A DNA stretch of 64,000 nucleotides, taken from contig CM000152.2 in assembly GCA_000004695.1 (NCBI GenBank), positions 3,104,001-3,168,000 of the forward strand, given 5' to 3'. This stretch comes from Dictyostelium discoideum. Lineage: Eukaryota. Positions 3,075-39,692 of the stretch are shown piece by piece. How positions within the stretch are numbered: the stretch's first letter is position 1; every line of letters begins with the position of its first letter. A program made the translations under genes and the position numbers. The notes under the pieces are model-generated. The model was not told the origin of the DNA and did not search any database. It was given only the letters and a program-made list of their open reading frames with translations.

Positions 3075-4372
3075 ATAATTACCTTTTTCATAAAAAGATA
3101 AACCTTTTTTAGCATCTCTTAAATTATTCGAAATTTCATCAGAAATTTCATTAAACGCTAATTTATTATCTTGATTTAAACTAATTTCCAATGACTCTAT
3201 ATCAATTTCATCTACATTATCAGATCGTCTCTTTATGGATGAAGTTGAAGTTGAATTTGCTGTTGTTGTGGTTGTTGTTGTTTTAGTTATTGATTTTGGA
3301 GTTGTAGTTTGTTCATCTGTAGGGTTTGTTTTTGTAATAAATGATTTTTTTGTTGCACTTGATGTTGTTGAGTTTGTAGCTGTAGTTGATGGTGTTTTAG
3401 TTGATGATAAAGTGGCGGAAGAAGAAGAAGATGAAGATGATGATGAAGATTTAGGAGTTGAAGTTAAAGTTGAAGGTCTTTTTAAAGCAGATGTTGTTGT
3501 GGAACCAATTGGTGAAGATGTAGTACTGGATGATATTCTTCTAGTTGGTGTTGTTGAGGTTGTCGTTGTTGAGGTTGAGGTTGTTGTATTAGTAGATGAT
3601 GATAATTTTGAAGGTGTAGGAGTTGAAAGTGGTGAAGATGGAGTTGATTTTGATTTTGTTAAAGTTGGAGCAGGTGGTGTTGGTCCTGGTGGTGAAATTG
3701 GTGATTTAATAATTGGTGGTAATGATCTAGTTAAATTTGAACTTGATGATTGTTTAGATAATGAAGTTGTAATTGCTCTAGTTCCAATACTACTATATCT
3801 ACCAGACTGTGTCGATGTTGCTAAATTTGGACTTGATGATGATGCAGTTTTAGTTATCATTGTTGTTGGTGTTTTTGATATTGGTGATTGTGATGAAGTA
3901 CTCATACCACCACCACCTCCACCACCACTACCACCAGTAATAACATCTTTTCTGGTTGTACCTAAACTTGATTTACTTCTAATTATATTTGATGCATCTA
4001 AAGGTCTTTTTATTGAACTACTAACTTCAGTTCTATTACCTATTGATGAACCTGATCTTAAGCTTGTTGATGATGATGATTGTGTTTTATTTGGTGTAGT
4101 TGTAGTAGTAGTGGTAGTTGTTGTTGTTGGGGTAGTATTTGTTGAAGATCTTATTTTTAAACCAGAAGCTCTACCAGTTGTTGGAGTTTTTGATCTAGTT
4201 GTTGATGTATTATTATTATTATTATTATCATTATTATTATTATTATTATTATCCTTTTTAAAATCATTTAAATCAAAATCTAAATCATTTGAATCTTCAA
4301 CCATTTTTTGATGTTGTTCCTCTTCAAAGAGGGAATTTTTTAATTTTTCACAAAATTCCAATTGATCACCTT
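2631..4372 (-). CDS. Ser/Thr/Asn-rich low-complexity ORF (>576 codons) directly downstream of, and out of frame with, the CLASP_N ORF. It is probably the C-terminal continuation of that gene through an undetected intron or a frameshift, but could be a separate gene.
   Basis: A long open frame on the minus strand (track ORF 2631..4361) with poly-T, poly-S, poly-N, PPGPTPP and GGGGGGG runs. It stays open upstream to ~4440, overlapping the 3' end of the CLASP_N ORF in another frame. The first in-frame ATG (MVEDSND) lies inside the ORF. Confidence 0.45.
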
Positions 4373-20644: not shown

Positions 20645-23046
20645 TTAAAGTTCGTCATGGGTTGATTGTGGTGGTTGTTGGAAATCTTGTTGTTGATTTT
20701 CATCATCATCACCAAATGAAACTGATGGACCAGAATTTTCATTTTTAGTGGTTTCGAAATTAGTTTGAGCTAAACTATCACCATTAATCATCATTAATTT
20801 GTAAATGAAATCGGCAAAGTTTGTTGGATTATCAATGGAATAACCAGCGGTAAGAGCAGAAGTTTCATATAAAACATGAGCGCTAACTTTGGTAGTTTCA
20901 TCTTCTTCACCAAATTCATTCAATCTATTCAAGAGTTTTTTAATGAGTGGATGGGAAGGATTAATTTCCATGATTTTCTTTGAATTGAATTGTGGTTGAG
21001 CGTTTGCTTGATGAGCTTGAGCTTTCATGATACGTTCTTGATTGGCAGTGACACCCCAAGAATTTGAGACTAAAATACTTGGTGAATCAGCTAAAACCTT
21101 TGAAATGACGACTTTTTCCAATTTATCAGAGAGAGTCTTTTTGAGGTAAGAAAGGAGTGGTTTGAATTCTTCGGCGGTTTGTTTACGTTGATCCTCTTCC
21201 TCTTTGTCTTCATTGAATTTAACACCACTACGTGCAAGATTAGTGAATTTGTATTTATCGTCAAATTTATCCAATTGTGGTACTAAATACTCATCGATTG
21301 GATCGACTAAGAATAAAACTTCATAACCTTTTTTAATGGCTTGTTCAATGAGTGGTGAAGCTTCTACGGAATCCTTTGATTTACCAGTGATAAAGTAAAT
21401 TTGATCTTGACCCTCTTTCATACGTTCTACATAACCAGCAAAAGTGGTTAACTCTTCCTTACTTGATGGGAATAAGAGGTATTTAGTTAAACGTTTTTTA
21501 TTGGCTTGATCTTCGATGGCACCTAATTTCATTGAAGAACCGAATTTCTTAAAGAATTCATTGTATTTGGTTTTATCTTCATCTTCAGATAACTCTTTAA
21601 TCATTGAAATGAATTTACCAATGACCTTCTTTTTAATGGCATCTAAAATCTTATTTTGTTGTAACATTTCACGAGAAACATTCAATGGTAAATCATCGGA
21701 ATCAATAACACCAACTAAAAATCTTAACCAATTTGGAACCAATTCCTTAAGGTTATCAGTGATGAAAACACGACGTACAAATAATTTAAGACCACTACCG
21801 GCAGCTTCTAAATCAAACATATTTGATGGTGGATTCTCTGGAATGTAAAGAATTGAACGGAATTCAGTATCACCTTCAGTCTTAAAATGTGAATAAGTGA
21901 TTGGTGTATCTTGAGTTTTACTTAATGATCTAAAGAATTCAGTGTATTCTTCTTTGGTAACATCTTTTGCTGCTTTCATCCATAATGGTTTTGAATCATT
22001 TAATTCTTCCCATTTATAAACGGTTTTAGTTTTCTTTTCTTCAGTTTGTCCTTCTTCTTCGGTTGTAGTCTCTTCTTCACCTTCTTCTGTGGTGGTGGTA
22101 GTTTCTTCAACTTGATCATCGGTGATTGGTTTTGAATCTTCTTGTTCTTCTTTTGGAATTTCAACTTCTTCAGAAACGTATAAATAAATTGGGAAATTAA
22201 TGAATTGTGAGTACTTCTTTACGAGTTGTTTAATAACTTCTTGATCTAAGAATTCTTTAGAGTCATCTTTAATGTGAAGACTAATACGAGTACCTCTACC
22301 AAGTGTATTACCTTTTGGATCTTTGGCAATGGTGTATGATGATTGTGAATCTGATGTCCAAACGTATTGATCATCATCATTACTCTTTGAGGTTACAACA
22401 ACAGAATCGGCAACTAAAAATAATGAATAGAAACCAACACCAAATTGACCAATTAAATTGGATGATTCTGCTGAATCACTAACTTTCTTTATGAATTCTT
22501 TAGTTCCTGATTGGGCAATAGTACCTAAATTTCTAACTAATTCATCTTTAGTCATACCAACACCTCTATCAGTAATATGGAGAACATTATTAGCTTTATC
22601 AATTTTAATATGAATATCTAAGTTTGATTGTTCACCTTCACCTAATAAATCTGCATTTGTTAATGCTAAAAATCTAATTTTATCTAATGCCTTTTTTTAG
22701 AAAAAAAAAAAAAATAAATAAATAAAAATAATTAATAATCTTTTTTTTTTTTTTTTTTTTTTTTGTTTAAAAAAAAATTAAAACTTACATCTGATGCATT
22801 TGAAATTAATTCTCTTAAAAAGATTTCTTTTTTAGAATATAAGGAATTAATGATAATATTCATTAATTTATTGACTTCAGTTTGGAAAGTGAATTTTTCA
22901 CCCTTTTCTTCAATTAATTTTGCTTCAGCTTCTGTGTATCCATCACTTTCAAGGTTAACAGTGGCAACACTTGAACTTGGAGCGAATGCAACTAAAAGGA
23001 ATGCAAATAAACCAAGAATTAAAAATATTTTTGTAATACTTTTCAT
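20645..23046 (-). CDS. grp94: Grp94/endoplasmin (ER Hsp90 paralogue). Two exons: 22789..23046 (ATG 23046, signal peptide) and 20645..22690. It ends in HDEL.
   Basis: Exon 1 reads [30 protein letters not shown]...[33 protein letters not shown], then a GTAAGT donor. Exon 2 reads [20 protein letters not shown]...[26 protein letters not shown]...[15 protein letters not shown]... This covers the Hsp90 N-terminal ATPase (Bergerat fold), middle and C-terminal domains. The C-terminal ...THDEL is an ER-retrieval signal. Confidence 0.93.
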
Positions 23047-23090
23047 CTTTTTTTTATAAGTATGTTTTTTAATTTAATGTATAATTGATG

Positions 23091-23128
<38 letters not shown>

Positions 23129-23246
23129 AAAAATGAAAAAAAAAAAAAAAAAAAAAATGAAAAAAAAACAGTGCATCGTCACCTTTTATTTTTAAAATAA
23201 AATGAAGCCCATCAGATGGAGTTCGATTTTTTCTAAAATTTTTTTT

Positions 23247-23650
23247 TTTTTATTTTCCCAAAACTTTAAAGGGAATAAAAAAATATTGTGTGACGATGCA
23301 AATTGATTAATGTAAAAATCAAAAGTTTTGATGCATTGTTTTAAATTTACAGGGTTTTTTTTTTTTTTTTTTTTTTTTTCTTTTTTCTTTCCTTTCTATT
23401 GATGTTTATATTGGAAGGGTTCAATTTTTTTATTTTTTTTTTTTTATTTTATTTTTTTATTTTATTTTATTTTTGTTTTGTTTTCTCAAAACTTTAAAGG
23501 GAATTAAAAAATATTGTGTGACGATGCAAATTGATTAATATAAAATCAAAAGTTTTGATGTATTGTTTTAAATTTACAGGTTTTTTTTTTTTTCATTTTT
23601 TTTTTCATTTTTCTTTTTTTTCTTTCTATTGATGTTTATATTATTATTAA
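23247..23650. repeat. Tandem direct duplication of an ~170-bp unit in the Grp94 5' flank (~23247..23420 and ~23474..23650), plus a third inverted copy of the core motif at ~23171..23190.
   Basis: The segment aaatattgtgtgacgatgcaaattgattaat(g/a)taaaa(a)tcaaaagttttgatg(c/t)attgttttaaatttacagg, followed by a T-run and ctttctattgatgtttatatt, is present twice. The core gtgacgatgca also occurs in reverse orientation as cagtgcatcgtcacc at ~23171. Confidence 0.8.
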
Positions 23651-23669
23651 TTGTTTTTTTTTTTTTTTT

Positions 23670-24180
23670 TTACCAATTATTGTCTTCATCATTATGTCTA
23701 TTAAAGAACCAAAGGAATGTAATAATTGTTGCATAAACTGTAACACCGCCTGCCATTGAAAATGCAAGTGCTTTTCCTGAAATCTGGAAATTTTTTTTAA
23801 AAAAAAAAATACGATTAGTTATTCATTCTTTTAACATATATATTTAAAATTATATTTAAATAAACCTACAATATCTGAATGGGCTAAAATCATTGGAATT
23901 GCAAATCCAGATGTAATAAATAGACCTGTTAAAAATAACCCAATATCTTCAAATGTTCTGTTTAGTTGTATTTTTTTAAAAAAAAAAAAAGAATGAGTAA
24001 TTAATTAATTGGAATTTTTAAAAAAAAAATAAAAAAATAAAAAAAGAACAAAATAATTAATAAATAATACAAACCCTTTTTCACTTGAAAAACTATCTCT
24101 ATTTCTACATAATATATTTGGGAACGGAGCAAGAAAATATGATGCAACTTTTTTTTTTTTTTTTTTTAAAACAAATTAGT

Positions 24181-25178: not shown

Positions 25179-27389
25179 TTATCTACCTCTAAAATCTAAA
25201 TTGAATTGAATAATTTTAGCATTTTTATCCCAAGAAGTAGTTACAATTGAAGAATCATAAGTTGTTAAAGAAGATATACGATTTGAATGATTATAAAGTG
25301 TTCTTTTACATTTTCCATTATCAACATCCCATAATTTAACGGTACCATCAAAGGAAGCAGAAACCACGAAATTATTGATAAATTTGGAAAGATTGACAAC
25401 TTCATCAGTGTGACCTTCTAAACAATGATAGGATTCACCATAGTTTGAATCCCAAACTTTTAGAGTTGAATCGGAGCTTGCAGTTAAGAATTTCTTTGGA
25501 GCAGTTGTACCATCGGTATCAACTTTACCATAGACCAAGATTGAATTTACACTACCACTATGAGATTGAAGAGTTTTAATACATTCACCATTATCCAATG
25601 ACCAAACTTTAACTCTACCATCACACGAGCCACTAATTAAAGTATCGGTAGAGTCAACTTCTAAACATTTAATCCAATCACTATGACCCGATAAAACATT
25701 TGTACTGGTACTGGTACGGATATCCCAAACTCTAATATTTGAATCATTTGAGCCAGAGATTACACGATATTGATCATTAACCACCAAACACATTACAGCT
25801 TGTTGATGACCAAACAATGTGATTGCAGGTTTATGACTACGACTATCCCAAACATTGATATTATTATCATTGGAGCCCGATACGAATATATTTGAATCTT
25901 GATTGACCAAACAAGTGATTGAACCTTTATGACCTCTAAATGATTTAATTTTTTGACCTTTTTGTAAATCCCAATATTTGATGGTTTTATCATATGAACC
26001 ACTTAACAATTTGGAGCCATCGGAACCCATAATCTCACAAGTTGTAACCCAACCACTATGATCCGATAAAGTGTTGATACATTTTGTAGTTGTTACATCC
26101 CAAACTTTTAATGTCGAATCGGCTGAACCCGTAATCAATAGATTATTTTCACGCTGAGAAATGGTTGAACATAAAACACCTTCAGAATGACCAGTGAACA
26201 ACTTCACCACATAATCACCTCTACTTTCAGAGATTTCTTTAATTGAGAAATTATTATTTTTGGTTGAATCTTTCTTTTTACTTGACTTACTCTCCTCCCA
26301 AGTTGATTTAATATTCATAATTTTATTCAATGAAACATGACCCTTTTCATCGAATAGATTTTGAAATATTTCATTGCCAACCTTGTTGTTTTTAGAATCT
26401 TTACCGCCACTACCAATCTTTGTAATCAATTGATAGGAATCCTCTTTTTCTCTCATTATATGTTTACGATGAACCAATTCATTATTATTATTATTATCTT
26501 GAAGTTTGGTTGAATTGATACCATTGTTAACTGTACTATCAAGATCTGATAATTCTCTAGCTCTTGACATATTTGAAACCACTTGTAACATTGTATCAGA
26601 ATCCAAATTAACTGAAGCACACATTCTATTTACAAATCTACGTACTAAATCGGGGGTTGAACCCAATGTAATCATTTTAAAAGTTTGATTTGATAATAAT
26701 GAAAATGCCATATCTTCTTCTTGTTTTATTAATTCCTTTTTAGTATCATCATTCTTTATTGACCATTCTACCATTTCTATTAACATTGAATTACCAATAC
26801 CATAAAGGTTTTTACATTTTGCTTCAATATGATCATAAAATAATTTTTCCCAAAACTTTTGGTTTTGCCAAAGGTCAATATTTGTTTGTAACTTTTCATG
26901 TAAATATTCATTTTGTCCTTTAAAAATTCTATGATAAATAAAAATTGATTCTAAAAATAATTGTGATGATATAAAATCTAATTGTGTATTACATTCTCTT
27001 AATGTAAATCTAATTATATCAACTAAACAATTAAATATTAAATCTGATAATTTAGTTTTACTATGATTTACACTACTACCAATACTACCACTTCTACTAC
27101 CACCACTTTTTGTATTTGAATTACTACTACCACCACCACCACCACTATGTAAACTCATTTGTGAAACATTTGAACCAACATAATTTTGTTTATGATGATT
27201 TAATAATAATTTACCAAAAATATGTCTACCATAATCAAATTGTAATACATCTAAAATTTGTTGAATATCATCAATTGGCACTTGATCACTAAAAATCTTA
27301 TCTAAAAATTTTTCAATTAAAATTACAAATGATTTATGTTGATCTTCATTAAATGAAAATTGTTGTAAACTTGATGAAATAATTGATAA

Positions 27390-27482
<93 letters not shown>

Positions 27483-30378
27483 TGATAATTCAATATTATT
27501 ATTATTATTATTATTATAAATATCATAAAGTGGTTTTAATTGATCTTGATTTAATAATGAAGTTGATGAAGAAGTTAATGAAGTTGAAGTTGAAGAAGTT
27601 GAAGAAGGTGAAGAAGTTATTGAACCAAATAAATCCAATTTTAAAGGTGATGGGAATTTTGAATATTCTTTTAATGTTGAATTATGTTGTGATGGATATG
27701 AAACTGATTGATAACTACTATAATGTGAAGATTTAATTGAGGATGGATTTGAAGATTGAATTATATTTACACTGAATGGATCAATTAAACCCAATGCTAG
27801 AGGTATTTGTGATTGATATTGTTGTTGTAATTCATCGATGGTTAATTTTTGATATCTTTTTGAATGCACAAGATAATCGAATAAATTCTTTGTTGGCCAA
27901 CTATGTTGTTCTAAAAAGTAAATGAATGCTTGAGTTTTAATAAACATTGAAATGAATGGTCTTGACGCAACAGCTTTTGATTTAATATATTCTTCATTAT
28001 TAAAAATTGGTACAGGTTGAGGGAAAACTCTTAAATATTTATAATATTTTCTATAATCATGTAATAAATTACAAAAATATTGTAAAAATGAAAATCTAAT
28101 ATGTTGATCAGGATTTGATGATATTGTTGGTAATGGTGGTATTGGTTGACTATTTGTTGTTGAATTACGTGATGAAGAATTTGAAGTTGTTGTTGAAGTT
28201 GTTGTTGTTGAAGATCTTTTATTACTAATTGAATCATTTGAGTTATTATTATTATTATTATTACTTGTTTTAATTGATGATAATGTATTTGGATTAAAAT
28301 TTGGTAAATCTGATGATAAAATTTCAAATTGTACAACTTTTTTTAATTGATTAATTAGTATTTGAGTTTCTTTTTCAGGTAATTGAATATCTTTTGTAGA
28401 GGTTGGAATATTGATTGAATTATTATCTAAATCGACTATTACCAATTCGTTTAATAGATCTTCTTTTGAAAGGATACGATCAGCATATGATCTATGAATG
28501 CCCATTATGAATGGGAACGGTGTACTACCCGCAATGTCAACTAAAACCTCTGGTAATACAGGTACATAGATATGAGTATACACTAATGGATGAATTAATG
28601 TTGTAATGATTTCGCAAATATAAGTTAAAAGAGTATACTGTGATGAAATGATTAAAATCTTTTCTTCCAATAATAAACACTTTATCAATGAAAGTACATT
28701 TCTAATATCCAAACTAAGGAATAACATTCTATAGGAGATGTCAGGTTCTGGTAATAAACATGGATCTGGTTGCTTCAATAAACATTGATTTAATCCACCC
28801 AAACTAAAGGTAACTGGATTCTTTCCTGGTCTTGGTAATTGAATTTCACTAACTAAATTGAATATATATCTTTCAATTGGAATTGGTGATGGATTATGAA
28901 ATACTCTATGATAAATTTCATTCAATGCAACTCTAAATGAACTAAAAAATGGAAAATGTGATAAAACACAAATACATTTTGGTGCATATAATTTAATTGG
29001 AAAATCATCAATTATTGTTGTTGTTATTGTTGTTGAAGAATTTGTTGAATTATTATTATTTGTTGTATTAGTTGTAGTAGTAGTTGTATTGGTTACATTA
29101 GTAGTATTTGAATTAGAATCTTGTGGCGAAGAAGAAGAAGAAGAAGAAGATGTTGTTGTTGTTACTGCTGCTGTTGGAATTGTAGTTGTTTGAGAATTTC
29201 CAATAGTTGGTGAGGAATTTGAAGAAGATGAAGAAATTGTTGGTGAAATTGCAGTTACATTTGCTTCAGAAATTGTTGAATCTCTTATTAATGACTCAAT
29301 ATCTTTTTCTTTAACATCATTATTTTGTTCATTATTATTATTACTATTATTATTATTATTATTTAAATTACTATTATTTAAATTATTATTATTATTTAAA
29401 ATTAAATTATTAAAATTTTTAGAATCTAAAGTTTCTTTATGTAATTCTTGATAAATTGAATCATTAATTTGTTCATAAAAAGTTAAACAAGAGGCATAAA
29501 AACGTTGACCAGTTTCATTTGTTAAAACAAAAGGAAAGAATGATGGTTGTGGTTGTTCAGTTTTAAAATTAATACCACGTGGAAAACAATACATCCAAAT
29601 ATGTTTTGGTAGAATACCTTCTTTAATTAAATCTTTTTCTTCTTTGTGAGGGTAGTAATCTAAAAGTTCACCTTTATAAGATTTCTCCAATGGTAATGGT
29701 AGAATTGTGGTTGTAGTATTACCCGATGTACCTCTATGACTATTATGAAATTGTTGTTCATTCAATTGATCCAATGGGTCAAGATTTTTAGTTGATGATA
29801 AACCACAAACAAAGAAATAATCAATCGGTCTATCTGGTACATACTTTTTCTCTCTTTCTAATTTCTTTTTCTCTTCTTTCTCTCTTTTACGTGCCTCCCT
29901 TCTTTCAGCTTCAATCTTTTTATGAATTTCCTCTTGTTCCAATTGTCTTAATTTTTCACGTGCCATAGCTTTCTCTTTTTCAATTCTTTCCGATTCTTGT
30001 TCTTTTGCTAATTGTTCCTCTATTATTTTTCTTTCTTGTTCTTTTCTTGCTTTTTCAATTGCTATTGAATCTTTATTATTAGTTATTAAAAATGATGAAC
30101 CTGAATTATTTCCTGTAGAATTTGTTGTATTGGTTGTTTGTACATTTGGTGAACCTGCTATTGATGCTGTAGTTGTTGTTGTTGTTGTTGTTGTTGTCGT
30201 TGTAGTTGTTGCTATATTATTTTGTGTTATAGGTGATGGTGGTGCTGTTGTTACTGTTGATGATTGTGATGAAATTGATTGTGAATGTAGTGGTGGTGTT
30301 GTTGGTTCTGATTGATTACCCGCTATATTATTATGATCACTATTACTTGGTGTAATATTACAACTATTACTATTATTA

Positions 30379-30446
<68 letters not shown>

Positions 30447-31066
30447 GGTACCATTTACATTATTTTGATTTTGAGTTTGATTTTGATTTTTTGATGACGA
30501 TGATGATGATGATGATGATGATGATGTTGTTTTATCTATTCTTGAAGTTATTTTCTTTTTTAATTTTAAAATTTGACTACCACCCTTACCAATAAAAGAC
30601 ATTTCTTTTGGATTTACAGGTTCTGGTTTATAATCTTTTGGTGGTGCTTGTACACCATTTATATTATTGCTGTTTACATTGTTGCTATTATTACTATTAC
30701 TATTACTATTACTATTACTATTACTATTACTATTACTATTACTATTACTATTACTATTACTATTACTATTAGTTCCACCTCCACCTATTATACCACTACT
30801 GCTACTATCATCAATTGATTGAGCACTATTTGTATTTGTATCAGTATCAAAATAAATATCCCTAATTTTAACCATTATTTTTACACGTAATTCTGAAAGG
30901 ATTTGAGGTGAATTTGATGATGGTTTTATATCTCTATCTACAGGTGTCCAACAATCAATTGTAAATATTTCAAATACTGATGTTGATTCCGATGTTATTG
31001 AATTTGAATTCATTGATGCTATACCATCAATACTATTACTATTCACCATTATGCTATTTCTATTAC

Positions 31067-31097
<31 letters not shown>

Positions 31098-31525
31098 TGT
31101 AATATTATTCATATTATTAGAAATTGAAGGTGACGATGATATTTGAGCACTTGTTAATGTTTGTTCATTCGTTGATGTTGATGTTGATGTTGATGATGGT
31201 GGTGGTGGTGACGTAGGTACTGATGGTGATGTTACATCTGATATTACCGTTGTTGGTGTTGGTGTTGAGGCTATTGTTGATGTTGGTGTTGGTGTAGTTG
31301 CTATTGTTGGTGTTGATGTTGGTGTATTTGTTATATTTTGATCATCACTAACACCATTTGGCTTTATATCTGTAATTATTATTGGTGATGGTGTGGTTAT
31401 TATTGAATTTGGTGATACAATTGGTATTTTTATTGAACCAACTCGTATATCATTACCAATTATATTTTGACTATAAATTTGAAATAAAACAAGATCTACT
31501 GTTTCTGTAGTTGTTCTATAAAATT

Positions 31526-39610: not shown

Positions 39611-39692
39611 GACATCGTAGCAAAGTGGTCTAATGCGTCTGACTAGAAATCAGATCCCTTCGGGGGCGCAGGTTCGAACCCTGCCGATGTCG
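39611..39692 (+). tRNA. tRNA-Ser, anticodon AGA, class II with long variable arm (82 nt).
   Basis: The 7-bp acceptor stem GACATCG pairs with CGATGTC. The D-arm is AGTGGTCTAA. The anticodon stem-loop is CGTCTGACTAGAAATCAGAT, whose loop CT-AGA-AA gives anticodon AGA. The long variable arm is CCCTTCGGGGGCG. The T-arm is GCAGGTTCGAACCCTGC (B-box GGTTCGAACC), then discriminator G. There is no intron. Confidence 0.9.

Follow-up and report, generated by a model that had tools for sequence, protein, structure and literature searches.

In Dictyostelium discoideum, the gene for the endoplasmic reticulum (ER) chaperone Grp94 is preceded by three copies of an 11-base motif, GTGACGATGCA, which recurs upstream of grp94 in other dictyostelids while the spacer DNA around it does not. 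This pattern strongly supports the original prediction, made from the D. discoideum letters alone, that the repeated motif is a cis-regulatory element. Because the motif is conserved at grp94 in all major groups of social amoebae and has a variant at the gene for a second chaperone, BiP, it is very probably a real transcription factor site. The fuller reading, to which a probability of roughly 60% is assigned, is that GTGACGATGCA (family RTGACGNKGCR, universal core GGTGACG) would be bound by a transcription factor, most likely a bZIP dimer, that drives the dictyostelid ER-lumenal chaperone genes grp94 and BiP.

The window analyzed is a 64-kb stretch of AT-rich dictyostelid DNA. Within it, grp94 (20645-23046, minus strand) encodes an ER Hsp90 of 767 amino acids with a C-terminal HDEL, and consists of exon 1 (23046-22789), a 98-nt intron (22788-22691, GTAAGT...AG), and exon 2 (22690-20645). 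The gene model, together with a protein match of 755/767 identical residues to a D. discoideum Grp94, confirms the predicted minus-strand gene with its ATG at 23046. Identity to the proteins of D. firmibasis and D. dimigraforme is 91-92%, measured with a 636-residue exon-2 query. The gene upstream of grp94 belongs to the Vps55 family and lies on the same strand. Since its stop codon is at 23672-23674, the 625-nt spacer of the window sequence contains both the 3′ flank of the Vps55-family gene and the grp94 promoter. Beyond the Vps55-family gene lies an open reading frame of 1977 amino acids (25179-31112, minus strand), whose product has very long runs of Asn, Ser, and Thr and a C-terminal series of WD40-like repeats; its position is kept in D. 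firmibasis and D. dimigraforme. A Pfam scan of ten large open reading frames in the window found no other ER genes among them, and Rfam yielded only one family match in the window that passed the gathering score, a tRNA gene (39611-39692, plus strand). A scan for bacterial-type promoters and terminators, irrelevant to this eukaryote, returned nothing.

Exactly three matches to GTGACGATGCA occur in the window, all of them inside the grp94 spacer, against a chance expectation of 0.04; none of 100 shuffles gave three, and allowing one mismatch yielded no additional match in the 64 kb. The proximal site (23172-23182, minus strand) is an exact match in the sense orientation of grp94, at -126 to -136 from the ATG, just where an inverted third copy had been claimed at about 130 bp. 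It lies directly 5′ of the promoter's long oligo(dT) tract (23091-23168 on the grp94, or minus, strand; TRF period 1, 78 nt, 89%), a tract that sits between the proximal site and the likely start-site region. Orthologues of this site are found at matching positions, -135 in a second D. discoideum strain and -133 in D. firmibasis. The middle site (23290-23300, plus strand; -244 to -254) and the distal site (23518-23528, plus strand; -472 to -482) are also exact matches, both antisense to grp94. By alignment, the middle site is orthologous to the lone distal site of D. firmibasis at -248.

The middle and distal sites fall in copies A and B, respectively, of a tandem duplication (23238-23672; TRF period 228, 1.9 copies, 87% matches, score 667). 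The near-identical cores of the two copies, 23255-23353 in A and 23483-23580 in B, align in blastn at 95% over 99 nt. Direct copies had been correctly predicted, but their dimensions had been set too small, at about 170 bp with a 70-bp core, where the period is 228 and the core about 99. The block ATATAAACATCAATAGAAAG, in the Vps55-family 3′ flank, marks the start of the duplicated unit, which extends through the distal grp94 promoter, and the distal repeat copy adjoins the 3′ end of the Vps55-family gene, as the position of that gene's stop codon implies. A 21-nt block, CTTTCTATTGATGTTTATATT (AATATAAACATCAATAGAAAG on the grp94 strand), is found in its original copy at 23622-23642 (minus strand), about 30 nt downstream of the Vps55-family stop, and in an identical duplicated copy at 23392-23412 (minus strand); its orthologue comes after the Vps55-family stop codon in D. 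firmibasis and D. dimigraforme.

Both of these relatives keep the order Vps55-family gene then grp94, and both D. discoideum repeat copies align to one unit in each of them. The spacer measures 625 nt in one D. discoideum strain and 601 nt in the other, compared with 387 nt for D. firmibasis and 349 nt for D. dimigraforme, and the second D. discoideum strain carries the same duplication with the same copy-specific differences. The single-copy counterpart occupies the orthologous place, so the duplicated unit did not arrive by insertion. The two copies adjoin head to tail and correspond to only one unit at the matching position in each relative, as a tandem segmental duplication should; by this comparison the event is young and specific to D. 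discoideum. The distal GTGACGATGCA arose through it, and the number of motif copies was raised from two to three. The triplication noted at the outset is correct as to three motif copies, but it is no ancient arrangement. Like other lineage-specific tandem promoter duplications, this one consists of two head-to-tail copies, here of 228 bp and 87-95% identical, with nothing unusual about it.

Such an origin raises the question of whether the reiteration means anything at all. If the repeat were no more than spacer DNA duplicated neutrally in tandem, or one member of a dispersed repeat family, the reiterated motif would be functionless, and the event is indeed recent, confined to one lineage, and inclusive of a neighbor's 3′ flank that has no obvious promoter role. 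For these reasons the copy number of three is best seen as a by-product of one event; the 228-bp duplication itself may well be neutral, and its two distal motif copies may be neutral passengers. Neutrality accounts for the copy number, however, and not for the conservation of a motif that is older than the duplication and is kept across Dictyostelia. As for a dispersed repeat, blastn of the window and about 84 kb of related loci found no copy of the 99-nt core or of the 228-bp unit beyond the tandem two (the best further match to the core in these 148 kb had E=0.01), and the unit lies at the orthologous position in the sister species. The prospect that the unit recurs in unrelated intergenic regions, which would have undone a regulatory interpretation, is thus not borne out in the 148 kb examined, and a functionless motif is improbable. 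Two further features of the repeat were set aside. The palindrome ATCAAAAGTTTTGAT within the unit is without conservation in the sister species. A CCAAT (sense strand, about 23413-23417) lies at the duplication junction, and an ERSE-type reading of it was dropped because it is confined to the middle copy and is not conserved.

The case for a transcription factor site is carried by the comparison of grp94 upstream regions. Eight dictyostelid species have, 70-260 nt ahead of grp94, either the 9-mer TGACGATGC or the core GGTGACG, in one orientation or the other and within spacer DNA that is AT-rich and otherwise unalignable between species. Distances from motif to ATG can be compared because the annotated grp94 ATGs align. 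D. discoideum has antisense copies at -482 and -254 and a sense copy at -136, with three copies also in the second strain. D. firmibasis has two, at -248 (antisense) and -133 (sense), and D. dimigraforme has one perfect copy at -148 (antisense), retained while its orthologue of the distal copy has decayed to TTTGCATCTCATTGG. In D. purpureum, ATGACGATGCG is found at -103 and a degenerate GTAACGATACA at -136. Heterostelium album has GTGACGATGCA at -254 and GTGACGAGGCA at -173, Cavenderia fasciculata has GGTGACGATGCT at -105, Tieghemostelium lacteum has GTGACGGTGTA at -91 and GGTGACGCGGC at about -70, and Acytostelium subglobosum has GGTGACGTGTC at about -150. For P. violaceum, the upstream sequence spans just 128 nt and is uninformative for the motif.

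Chance does not readily produce this distribution. A word search of five lineages that was blind to the motif returned, as the only G/C-containing 8- to 10-mers common to four of them, fragments of (A)GGTGACGATGC(A). The 9-mer TGACGATGC never appeared in more than one lineage across 2000 dinucleotide shuffles, and a 9-mer of any kind common to four lineages arose in 1 of 500. In every 8-10 kb locus that has it, TGACGATGC is found only upstream of grp94. The upstream neighbor is a different gene in D. purpureum, T. lacteum, H. album, C. fasciculata, and A. subglobosum, so the motif accompanies grp94 rather than the Vps55-family gene. Its orientation and position vary from species to species, with at least one good copy kept in each of the eight, which is the pattern expected of binding-site turnover under selection. 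Judged from these comparisons, the motif is old and conserved at grp94 across all major groups of social amoebae.

Individual loci show some local peculiarities. In C. fasciculata the site (locus L009, 2892-2916), read in the orientation of the motif, is GGTGACGATGCTGACGCATC, that is, two overlapping half-site units with the second TGACG abutting the first. The -148 copy of D. dimigraforme (locus L002, 3800-3870) runs opposite to the proximal copy that D. discoideum and D. firmibasis have at a near-equal distance, and this reversal could reflect a small inversion or site turnover. Between the proximal and middle motifs of D. discoideum lies a G/C-richer island, AATCGAACTCCATCTGATGGGCTTC (23205-23229, minus strand), with counterparts AATCGAAATCCACCATC in D. 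firmibasis and AATCGAAAGCCCC in P. violaceum. A palindrome in this island, CCATCTGATGG, is broken in the second D. discoideum strain, and the word GAACTCC also occurs at -429 of BiP.

Some features of the repeat recall a different class of element. Class I RNAs are 42-65 nt long, with an 11-nt motif, a terminal stem, and a CUGU end beyond which T-runs follow, and they are preceded by a DUSE about 60 nt upstream (PMC7919456). The unit could accordingly be proposed as a small non-coding RNA of this kind, with a DUSE-like TCCCAAAA box and a T-run end, or as a 3′-end processing signal of the Vps55-family gene. The sequence TTTTCCCAAAAC (23263-23274, plus strand) resembles a DUSE box, the proximal copy reads ...GCACUGUUUUUUUUU, comparable to Class I RNA ends, and the distal copy lies about 150 nt past the Vps55-family stop codon. 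Yet Rfam has no match to the unit, whether the gathering threshold is applied or E values up to 10 are allowed, and the unit folds no better than shuffled sequence on either strand (z from -0.8 to +0.4). The box is imperfect and is lost in copy B, which has CTC in place of CCC; D. firmibasis reads GAG there when viewed on the grp94-sense strand. A start 60 nt downstream of it would leave only about 25-30 nt before the T-run, versus the 42-65 nt of Class I RNAs. The motif, moreover, remains with grp94 where the neighbor differs, and does so in either orientation. With Rfam empty, folding null, the box unconserved, and the motif following grp94, both the RNA gene and the 3′-end signal were rejected as very improbable.

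The box region also figures among the words shared between upstream regions. The word TTCCCAAA / TTTGGGAA (23263-23274 and 23491-23502, both plus strand) is the next most widely shared G/C-containing word upstream of grp94, being present in three to four of five lineages, and it is found at about -165 in locus L006, about -395 in the C. fasciculata locus L009, and -566 in the BiP locus L013. Its CCC is CTC in the distal copy, and TGGGAAAAT is present in the BiP spacer too. For this specified word 8 of 2000 shuffles did as well, a figure uncorrected for multiple testing and of uncertain significance.

Whether the motif belongs to ER chaperone genes more widely was assessed at BiP and PDI, using BiP and PDI1 query proteins that are 97% and 100% identical, respectively, to the named D. 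discoideum proteins. The D. discoideum BiP promoter has a single close variant, GATGACGCTGCA, in the sense orientation at -168/-169 in the two strains. This variant is the only TGACG in the 867-nt BiP spacer and differs from the 11-mer GTGACGATGCA at two positions. Among 3000 shuffles of the BiP promoter, 13-19 contained a match to the 11-mer with at most two mismatches, and 3-4 contained one that also kept TGACG. In the D. purpureum PDI promoter (681 nt, 9% G+C), no copy of the motif occurs within two mismatches; looser relatives are ATGACAAAGCA at -550 and the TRE-like GGTGACTCAC at -422. The proposal that the motif would be found at other ER-stress genes therefore holds in part, for the BiP variant of D. 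discoideum and not for PDI of D. purpureum. One independent gene speaks for the link to ER chaperones and one does not, the positive case outside grp94 being a single gene in a single species.

Two of the few G/C-containing islands of the D. purpureum PDI promoter deserve mention. One is ATGACAAAGCA (locus L011, 2451-2461), followed by a long T-run, and another is GGGGTGACTCAC (about 2578-2587), which contains the AP-1/Gcn4-type TGACTCA. The two islands may have diverged from the motif, or they may be recognized by another bZIP protein.

The consensus RTGACGNKGCR has 15 matches in 175,184 nt of dictyostelid DNA, all of them in grp94 or BiP promoters. Because this consensus was derived post hoc from the very instances counted, its presence at the source sites is circular, while its absence everywhere else is still informative. 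That absence bears on a serious rival, in which the motif is a real regulatory site serving growth-phase expression or the shut-off of genes in starvation, and not ER stress. The conservation evidence fits this explanation equally, and Dd-GRP94 has been tied to the starvation response. Control of this general kind is harder to reconcile with the absence of the motif from every other promoter in the window and the locus flanks, among them those of housekeeping genes (encoding, for example, a CCT chaperonin subunit, an RNase PH subunit, and ribosomal proteins), and with its being shared specifically with BiP. Growth or starvation control is on balance unlikely, at perhaps a third of the weight given to a site that would drive ER chaperone genes as such.

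A second word is shared between the grp94 and BiP promoters. The 12-mer AATTGTACATTA is found at -36/-37 of grp94 in D. firmibasis and D. dimigraforme (L003, 3965-3976; L002, about 3964-3975) and at -34 of D. discoideum BiP (L013, 3967-3978). In both D. discoideum strains the grp94 copy has one mismatch; in the window this copy is AATTATACATTA (23075-23086, minus strand), about -30 to -41 from the grp94 ATG, and it is the only match there with at most one mismatch to the core-promoter word of BiP. At both genes the word directly follows a long T-run that TTCATTTTT interrupts. About 10 of 5000 shuffles produced a shared word of this length. General use as a start-site word can be dismissed: the window has 26 matches with at most two mismatches against 53 expected. 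The word may represent a second shared element, or a start-site or 5′-UTR signal of ER chaperone genes.

Taken together, the distribution of GTGACGATGCA and its relatives indicates that it is probably a genuine and previously undescribed cis-regulatory element of ER chaperone genes, and probably one of bZIP type. The candidate site would function in either orientation, with at least one copy 70-260 nt upstream of the ATG per species, and in the D. discoideum group it lies directly 5′ of the oligo(dT) tract ahead of the start-site region. Two sites, one distal and antisense and one proximal and sense, were presumably present in the ancestor of this group. In the D. discoideum lineage, the 228-bp tandem duplication would then have copied the Vps55-family 3′ flank together with the distal promoter and so produced the third site. 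A sequence-specific activator is predicted to bind the motif, with the invariant TGACG serving as a bZIP half-site; the form TGAC-NNN-GC, in which GC(A) follows three bases on, suggests a dimer with two unequal halves. What we infer, then, is that a protein binds, that it is of the bZIP class, that the site may answer to ER stress, and whatever consequence the third copy may have.

A response of the motif to ER stress is plausible. The transcriptional ER-stress response of Dictyostelium depends only partly on IreA, and few ER chaperones depend on it (PMC6025073). No XBP1/Hac1 or ATF6 counterpart has been identified in Dictyostelium, and 19 bZIP genes, uncharacterized for a role in ER stress, remain candidates (PMC6025073). 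A later paper on Dictyostelium ER stress used CdcD as its marker, not grp94 or BiP. In the searchable literature, neither a description of a Dictyostelium UPR element or factor nor evidence of tunicamycin induction of D. discoideum grp94 was found, and a search for the literal motif gave primer matches only. A bolder and decidedly tentative hypothesis is that RTGACGNKGCR is the ER-stress response element of Dictyostelia, read in an ARE/Maf-like manner, as two unequal halves, by a bZIP pair, and that it defines an IreA-independent, ATF6-like branch inducing ER chaperones. If true, this would be an amoebozoan cis-code for the UPR whose sequence is unlike the ACGT-core elements of animals, fungi, and plants. 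A defined and conserved element common to grp94 and BiP makes the identity of the factor for ER chaperones a directly testable question, and the 11-base element offers a bait for DNA-affinity and one-hybrid screening as well as a target that can be mutated in reporters. The duplication adds a natural comparison, with three sites in D. discoideum versus two or one in its sister species.

Among known elements, those of the UPR are the obvious point of reference. Like UPREs and ERSEs, the motif precedes its genes, those for the ER chaperones Grp94 and BiP, by no more than a few hundred bases, and it carries a TGACG bZIP half-site in either orientation and in one to three copies; mammalian GRP promoters have several ERSEs each. 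Known UPR elements confer induction by tunicamycin or DTT and bind bZIP factors of the XBP1/Hac1/bZIP60 or ATF6/bZIP28 type. This location in ER chaperone promoters holds for grp94 in eight species and for BiP in D. discoideum, with the motif absent at D. purpureum PDI. The sequence itself is another matter. The canonical definitions are the mammalian UPRE/ATF6 site TGACGTGG and the ERSE CCAAT-N9-CCACG, the yeast UPRE-1 CAGNGTG and UPRE-2 TACGTGT, and TGACGTG in K. lactis KAR2 (PMC6116095). Most dictyostelid instances are TGACGATGC, and TGACGTG occurs only in A. subglobosum, whose GGTGACGTGTC contains both the TGACGTG of the K. lactis KAR2 type and the ACGTGT of the yeast UPRE-2 type. In contrast to mammalian and yeast UPREs, groups 1, 2A, and 4 read TGACGATGC(A), without an ACGT core, and the grp94 upstream regions examined have no conserved CCAAT partner. 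Since its sequence fails every canonical UPR definition in most species, the motif is not to be filed as a UPRE despite its UPRE-like position.

Two other families offer partial likenesses. The TGACG half-site is shared with the CRE, TGACGTCA, and with ATF/CREB sites generally, and it is present in all instances, but only as the half-site; the palindromic CRE does not occur, as the dictyostelid motif is not palindromic and its conserved second half is (A/C)TGCA instead of TCA. Closer in form is the ARE, originally defined as RGTGACNNNGC (PMC3488259). The sequence GGTGACGATGC fits this definition exactly, all RTGACGNKGCR instances fit TGACNNNGC, and the variants at BiP and in D. purpureum, H. 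album, and T. lacteum keep the ARE/Maf-like arrangement of TGAC, three bases, and GC, which is suggestive of a heterodimer-type site. AREs are bound by CNC-small Maf heterodimers and occur at cytoprotective genes. The resemblance is purely formal: the G after TGAC is invariant in the dictyostelid motif, whereas functional AREs favor TCA in the spacer, and the dictyostelid genes encode ER chaperones, not detoxification proteins.
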